Source: Escherichia coli (lineage in GTDB: Bacteria > Pseudomonadota > Gammaproteobacteria > Enterobacterales > Enterobacteriaceae). From it: a stretch of 64,000 nucleotides of DNA. The notes beneath the pieces are model-generated. The model made no database searches. It saw only the letters and a program-made list of their open reading frames with translations, and was not told the DNA's origin. Made by a program: the position numbers and the translations under genes. The stretch lies in the NCBI RefSeq assembly GCF_003019035.1, contig NZ_CP027447.1; one strand, 5' to 3'. This document shows positions 57,545-57,673 of this stretch, piece after piece; position 1 is the stretch's first letter, and each line of letters opens with the position of its first letter.

Positions 57545-57673
57545 CTATTTATCGGAAGGTTTATCTTGCTGCGGTTTGTTGTTGACCATATCGCACAACA
57601 TAGAGAGCAGCATTAACCGTACTTTAAAGGGAGAATGACTAAACACGCGCATACACCTCTTGAACTCATTCAT
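57545..57673 (-). CDS. mntS: Small manganese-responsive protein MntS (42 aa)
   Basis: Minus-strand translation from the ATG at 57673 reads MNEFKRCMRVFSHSPFKVRLMLLSMLCDMVNNKPQQDKPSDK then TAG; too short for the ORF track; recognised from memory. Confidence 0.85.
   Translation of the reverse strand: MNEFKRCMRVFSHSPFKVRLMLLSMLCDMVNNKPQQDKPSDK

Follow-up and report, generated by a model that had tools for sequence, protein, structure and literature searches.

mntS of Escherichia coli: a 42-residue manganese-related protein gene with putative tandem MntR boxes, opposite a spurious longer frame

Two reading frames compete for the same nucleotides in a stretch of Escherichia coli DNA of 64,000 nucleotides, hereafter the window, and the question is which product, protein or RNA, this locus has been kept for. 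On the minus strand, the ORF listing and translation give an ATG-to-TAG frame of 42 codons (57545..57673; MNEFKRCMRVFSHSPFKVRLMLLSMLCDMVNNKPQQDKPSDK), which a preliminary description made from the letters of the window had picked out and read as the small protein MntS; on the plus strand, the mechanical ORF track shows instead a frame of 119 codons (57257..57616). The minus-strand frame and its translation were reproduced exactly. By itself such a frame is uninformative, since 54 ORFs of at least 30 amino acids lie in the same 5.5 kb; its significance comes from homology and conservation and not from its length.

Homology settles the identity. The 42-residue protein scores 96 bits against the NCBIfam equivalog NF033226 (small_MntS; cut-off 36, E = 6.3e-28), with residues 1-39 aligned to profile positions 1-40 of 41, and it is identical in all 42 residues to MntS of strain K-12 (b4705, YP_009029995.1), whose gene lies inside rybA (b4416). 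RefSeq annotates the frame at 57545..57673 as mntS. The protein has the features that define the MntS family, namely a length of about 40-43 residues with an N-terminal MNEFKRC..FSHSPFKVRLML and a PF motif. The copy of Pfam that we used gave no match even at E values up to 10; the homologues that we collected all carry the precomputed entry PF26599, a family named MntS, and the miss is probably due to PF26599 being newer than that copy. A sequence search of the PDB with the 42-residue protein found no relative. AlphaFold2 predicts two helices (residues 2-13 and 16-31) with a break at S14-P15 and a disordered tail, at a mean pLDDT of 77, which agrees with the bihelical model in a published preprint (bioRxiv 10.1101/2023.06.02.543501). 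The 1.2-kb mntS locus is present in 5421 of the 5426 complete E. coli genomes; the 1201-bp query (57200-58400 of the window) matches strain SCU-301, rather than K-12, at 100%. We conclude that the frame is mntS, a gene that is already known, annotated and experimentally characterised.

The preliminary description had made its reading depend on the conservation of the frame in other enterobacteria, and this was borne out. A species scan with one genome per species gave 121 loci, the best 80 of which were kept; these cover Escherichia, Citrobacter, Salmonella, Klebsiella, Enterobacter, Kosakonia, Kluyvera, Leclercia, Lelliottia and others. In all 80 species among these best 80 of 121 loci, a frame of 41-43 codons runs from an ATG to a stop. 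In the first 36 ungapped codons, codon positions 1, 2 and 3 vary in 18, 10 and 31 of 36 columns, respectively, and pN/pS, pooled against the window sequence, is 0.16 for the mntS frame and between 0.36 and 2.9 for the other five frames. An alignment of 23 sequences contains 18 invariant residues, including E3, C7, F11, H13, P15 and F16, and a nearly invariant C27; the protein of the window has all 18 invariant columns, P15 and F16 among them. Four nucleotides before the ATG lies a Shine-Dalgarno sequence, AGGAGG (57678..57683, minus strand, read from the sequence), and the heptamer AGGAGGT is invariant in an alignment of eight genera and nearly invariant in the best 80 of the 121 loci. These patterns argue that the frame is under selection at the protein level and, judging from its Shine-Dalgarno, start and stop signals, translatable.

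The neighbourhood of the gene is equally stable. The preliminary description placed mntS divergent from mntR, and this arrangement holds: mntR, which encodes a manganese-sensing regulator of 155 residues, lies on the plus strand at 57859..58326 (269 bits against NF008273, cut-off 153; Fe_dep_repress domains in the product), 185 bp from mntS. The same divergent arrangement, with 180-189 bp between the genes and 432 bp at one locus, occurs in 77 of the 80 species (best 80 of 121 loci); three loci depart from it, one of them truncated and the other two, from Citrobacter, with an integrase-like gene in the place of mntR. On the other side, opgE follows mntS on the same strand at a distance of 254-299 nt in all 80 species (best 80 of 121 loci). 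The region between opgE and mntR is collinear with that of K-12, with six substitutions in 585 nt, none of which falls in the coding sequence, the boxes described below or the hairpin after the stop codon.

The two Citrobacter loci merit a separate description. In both genomes (locus L012, 1-1500; locus L026, 292-1332), mntR is absent and a frame of 346 codons, which looks like a candidate phage-type tyrosine integrase, ends about 170 nt upstream of mntS. Homology to the other species restarts at TATAATATAGCC, which places the junction of a presumed inserted element inside the mntS promoter; box 1 of the two boxes discussed next is kept there, and box 2 and the -35 region are replaced.

The palindrome that the preliminary description had noticed upstream of mntS is real. 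An inverted-repeat search finds ATATAGC-ACAG-GCTATAT at 57732..57749, with arms of 7 nt (57732-57738 and 57743-57749) that are 100% complementary and 4 nt apart, 59-76 nt upstream of the mntS ATG; we call this element box 1. The suggestion that it resembles an MntR operator is also well supported. We tested the definition of the box directly on the K-12 promoters of mntH and mntP: its core, ATAGC-N4-GCTAT (57734-57747 in the window), occurs exactly just upstream of mntH, within AAACATAGCAAAGGCTATGTTT, and upstream of mntP in two copies separated by 40 bp, one exact and the other with a single mismatch. The core has two matches in the 64-kb window, compared with 0.05 expected from shuffled sequences, and the exact core stands 71-77 nt before the mntS ATG in all 81 loci (the window and the best 80 of the 121). 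The mntS promoter thus carries what is, by its sequence, an MntR operator. A motif search combined with conservation points to a putative second, weaker box, ATAGCTATTGCTAA (57753..57766), which has one mismatch to the core and lies 19 bp upstream of box 1; among the same 81 loci (including the window; best 80 of 121), 14 carry an exact copy and 62 a copy with a single mismatch, 90-96 nt ahead of the ATG. The operator is therefore better described as two apparent tandem boxes than as the single palindrome of the preliminary description, and the second box is an addition of the present analysis.

The other exact match to the core, the only one in 64 kb besides box 1, is ATAGCACCAGCTAT at 53636-53649. 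It lies about 50 bp upstream of the apparent start of a minus-strand gene (ATG at about 53588), which we take from its sequence to be dps. The dps gene has been reported to be regulated by MntR.

The boxes can be placed relative to the start of transcription with the help of K-12, in which the ncRNA feature rybA (340 nt; 852725..853064) corresponds to 57401..57740 on the minus strand of the window, at an offset of 795324, so that its 5' end maps to 57740. Relative to this end, box 1 extends from about -7 to +7 and box 2 from about -26 to -13; the pair takes up promoter positions -26 to +7. A candidate -10 element, TATAAT (57753-57748, minus strand), sits between the two boxes and overlaps both, and a weak -35-like TTAACG can be read at 57769-57774 on the same strand; the two are separated by 15 bp, or by 17 bp with the -10 element taken as TAATAT at 57746-57751. 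These hexamers are candidates read from the sequence. A consensus promoter scan did not call the mntS promoter, and our assignments of the promoter and of the hairpin after the stop codon accordingly lean on the 5'-end annotation of K-12 and on conservation. The block 57715-57775 is nearly invariant among the best 80 of the 121 loci, and its flanks vary.

A candidate promoter for mntR, TTGTAC-16-TACAAT, can be read on the plus strand at 57779-57806; both hexamers are conserved and the spacer is variable among the best 80 of the 121 loci, and the consensus promoter scan made no call there. If this reading is right, the mntR promoter stands back-to-back with the mntS promoter and outside both MntR boxes, and direct autoregulation of mntR is thus not obvious.

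Together with the literature, these elements make a coherent picture. Transcription of rybA and mntS would start at about 57740, and the two tandem boxes would cover the -10 region and the start site of the promoter. When manganese is plentiful, manganese-loaded MntR would occupy the boxes and block RNA polymerase; occlusion of the polymerase is the mode of repression that we infer from this geometry. When manganese is scarce, the promoter would be free, and the strong Shine-Dalgarno sequence would direct synthesis of a 42-residue helix-kink-helix protein, which would bind and inhibit the exporter MntP, so that the cell keeps its manganese; the shortest transcript, of about 205 nt, would end at the hairpin after the mntS stop codon. 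Repression of mntS transcription by manganese and MntR is credited to Waters et al. (2011), as cited in PMC4361602 and PMC9315381. Chromosomally tagged MntS has been detected when manganese is limiting, the phenotype of MntS overexpression is lost with frameshifts at F11 and F16, and Hfq is not required (PMC4361602). MntS has further been reported to bind and inhibit MntP and to self-associate with manganese (bioRxiv 10.1101/2023.06.02.543501). Of 5426 E. coli genomes, 5422 carry the target gene, mntP. We are as good as certain that the rybA transcript has mntS as its protein-coding part, repressed by MntR and acting through inhibition of MntP.

The 3' end of this transcript deserves attention. 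Northern analysis has revealed seven RNAs in E. coli that share their 5' end and range from 205 to about 400 nt (PMC4361602). In the window, an inverted repeat supported by folding forms a terminator-like hairpin, AGCGGCGT-CGCGGT-ACGCCGCT, at 57525..57546 on the minus strand; it begins within the stop codon of mntS, has a G+C-rich stem of 8 bp and folds locally at -18.4 kcal/mol (z = -2.7), and the distance from 57740 to it is about 205-216 nt. The hairpin is nearly invariant across species and forms in every variant that we folded, with small differences in its distance from the stop codon. The tail that follows it (57525-57510 in the window; loci L005-L084) is TTCATTTTT in most genera and TTCACTCCTGCTTTT in Escherichia. 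Hairpin and TTCATTTTT together make, in most genera, a recognisable intrinsic terminator by sequence, and the hairpin of the window is probably a terminator as well. A terminator scan did not call the mntS hairpin in the window, probably owing to the TTCACTCCTGCTTTT tail of Escherichia; this tail also fits the reported species of 205 to about 400 nt (PMC4361602), and the terminator may have been weakened specifically in the Escherichia lineage. One can go a step further and imagine that decay of the U-tract in Escherichia lets transcription read through into the promoter and leader of opgE, which would account for the published read-through RNAs, up to about 400 nt long; we regard the resulting coupling of opgE to manganese status as a very long shot. 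If true, it would mean that MntR-controlled read-through ties the expression of the phosphoethanolamine transferase OpgE to manganese status.

The region upstream of opgE has conserved elements of its own. A promoter-like TTGACC-17-TATCTT lies on the minus strand at 57424..57396, with conserved hexamers and a varying spacer; next comes a leader of about 115 nt (in the region 57274-57475, minus strand) whose conservation is unusually high and which contains a hairpin, ACGCCA-N11-TGGCGT, and then TTTGTT. Further upstream, at about 57440-57464, stands a conserved block, TTTGCAATCCCCTTCGCAAAAG. This conserved region overlaps the 3' part of the annotated 340-nt rybA. Rfam has no match over 57274-57475, and among 12 species a compensatory change was seen in one of the 21 predicted pairs of the leader, which gives no evidence for a structured RNA.

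The alternative that survives best is that the locus acts mainly, or additionally, as the non-coding regulatory RNA RybA, with the small frame as a secondary matter. The K-12 feature of 340 nt that covers the mntS site is annotated as an ncRNA; Gerstle et al. (2012), as cited in PMC11878033, attribute to RybA the repression of aroF and aroL under peroxide stress; and a separate role as an sRNA is still allowed for RybA in PMC4361602. Conservation is, moreover, high at the hairpin and in certain 3' blocks. The pattern of conservation is, however, the one expected of a protein, with variation at third codon positions and a low pN/pS, as given above, and with the start, the stop and the Shine-Dalgarno sequence kept in all 80 species (best 80 of 121 loci). 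The segment just past the hairpin (about 57480-57520) is poorly conserved, and the conserved 3' blocks further downstream resemble the promoter and leader of opgE. Rfam has no family match in 56500-59000 at E values up to 1, and a transcript of 221 nt folds no more stably than shuffled sequence (z = -0.5), so that neither a curated RNA family nor a covarying structure was found for RybA; the terminator hairpin alone is conserved as a structure, and its stem varies too little to permit a test of covariation. Finally, frameshift alleles lose the manganese phenotype, and Hfq is dispensable (PMC4361602). We therefore consider it unlikely, while giving it more weight than any other alternative, that RNA activity is the main or an additional function here, and retain mntS as a protein gene.

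That the plus-strand frame of 119 codons is the real gene and the 42-codon frame a chance ORF can be dismissed as next to inconceivable: in its favour are only its greater length and its place in the mechanical ORF list, but it matches nothing in Pfam or NCBIfam, lacks a CDS in RefSeq, begins with TTG, overlaps mntS over 57545-57616 and, over 57257-57273, the start codon of opgE as well as the conserved opgE leader, and shows a pN/pS of 0.70 in the part that overlaps mntS. The frame is broken in most genera; the longest antisense ORF over mntS has a median length of 47 codons, and one of at least 100 codons occurs in only 3 of 81 loci, the window itself being one (best 80 of 121). Without a family match, an annotation or conservation, the 119-codon frame was rejected as a gene, and the judgement of the preliminary description that it is spurious is upheld. 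The absence of mntS noted in the same description is correct for its ORF track and does not extend to public annotation; given that RefSeq has mntS, its absence from the track can only reflect the length threshold of that track. ORF tracks with such a threshold hide functional small proteins, and may even put in their stead a longer, spurious frame from the other strand; a cross-species codon analysis quickly decides between a small gene and an antisense frame in such cases.

A last question concerns the origin of the protein, and whether anything but ancestry accounts for its presence. MntS has been proposed to derive from the signal peptide of SitA (bioRxiv 10.1101/2023.06.02.543501), the periplasmic subunit of the SitABCD manganese importer. 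A single-pass profile search of 1.84 billion protein representatives returned 34 hits to short proteins and no full-length SitA, and a follow-up search with one SitA-like hit, P0145, which has FSHSPFRLRLML followed by a hydrophobic stretch and then AQA, found only two proteins. The locus of P0145, L085 (Logan SRR18067521, 1230-5289), comprises a divergent mntR, the 50-codon P0145 frame, a protein of the ZnuA family, an ABC ATPase and two ABC-3 permeases. Nothing but a frameshift in a stretch of nine A residues comes between the 50-codon frame and the ZnuA frame, so that together they would form one SitA with an MntS-like signal peptide; the frameshift may be an error of assembly or mark a real pseudogene.

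MntS and the signal peptide of this SitA have a common core, FSHSPF-(K/R)-(V/L)-RLML, with 37% identity over 35 residues (E = 2e-11 for the pair), and a divergent mntR is common to both genes. The DNA upstream of the L085 gene also aligns with the mntS promoter, and the two share the box ATAGCCTGTGCTAT without a difference, the spacing to a second box and a CATTGTAAACCA motif; the TACAAT/CATTGTAAACCA motif of the candidate mntR promoter is likewise kept at L085. In contrast to SitA, MntS ends at 42 residues, before a terminator hairpin, and the features of a SitA signal peptide that L085 has, an A-x-A cleavage motif, a ZnuA domain and downstream sitBCD, are absent at mntS, where opgE follows instead. 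Although the link to SitA was recovered only through this one frameshifted locus, the alignment independently supports the published origin of the protein and suggests that the same origin extends to the promoter. The preprint further describes MntS as less hydrophobic than related signal peptides and suggests that it may have become soluble instead of forming an integral membrane helix (bioRxiv 10.1101/2023.06.02.543501).

Such an origin is consistent with yet another reading, in which the 42-codon frame is an inert leftover of the sitA signal-peptide exon with no function left, and the alignment with the L085 signal peptide, together with the same divergent mntR and promoter boxes, speaks in its favour. 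A leftover, however, would hardly have been held under purifying selection across 80 species (best 80 of 121 loci), with its promoter, its Shine-Dalgarno site and its terminator also kept, and both loss of function and overexpression have published phenotypes (PMC4361602); we give this reading virtually no credence, and continue to regard mntS as a functional gene.

The gene itself is not new: mntS has been annotated and studied since 2011, and both the inhibition of MntP and the origin from SitA have already been published. The present analysis adds no more than a putative second MntR box, a probable terminator hairpin after the stop codon and a formal case for rejecting the antisense frame. 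The preliminary observation is confirmed and its interpretation supported, with two refinements, namely that the boxes are apparently in tandem and that mntS is present in public annotation.

Compared with mntS of K-12, the gene in the window has the same neighbours and differs in nothing of substance. More broadly, MgtS, AcrZ, KdpF and SgrT are small proteins that regulate bacterial transporters. MntS resembles them in being shorter than 50 residues, in being induced by a specific stress and in acting through binding to a larger membrane transporter, whereas it has no sequence relationship to any of them.
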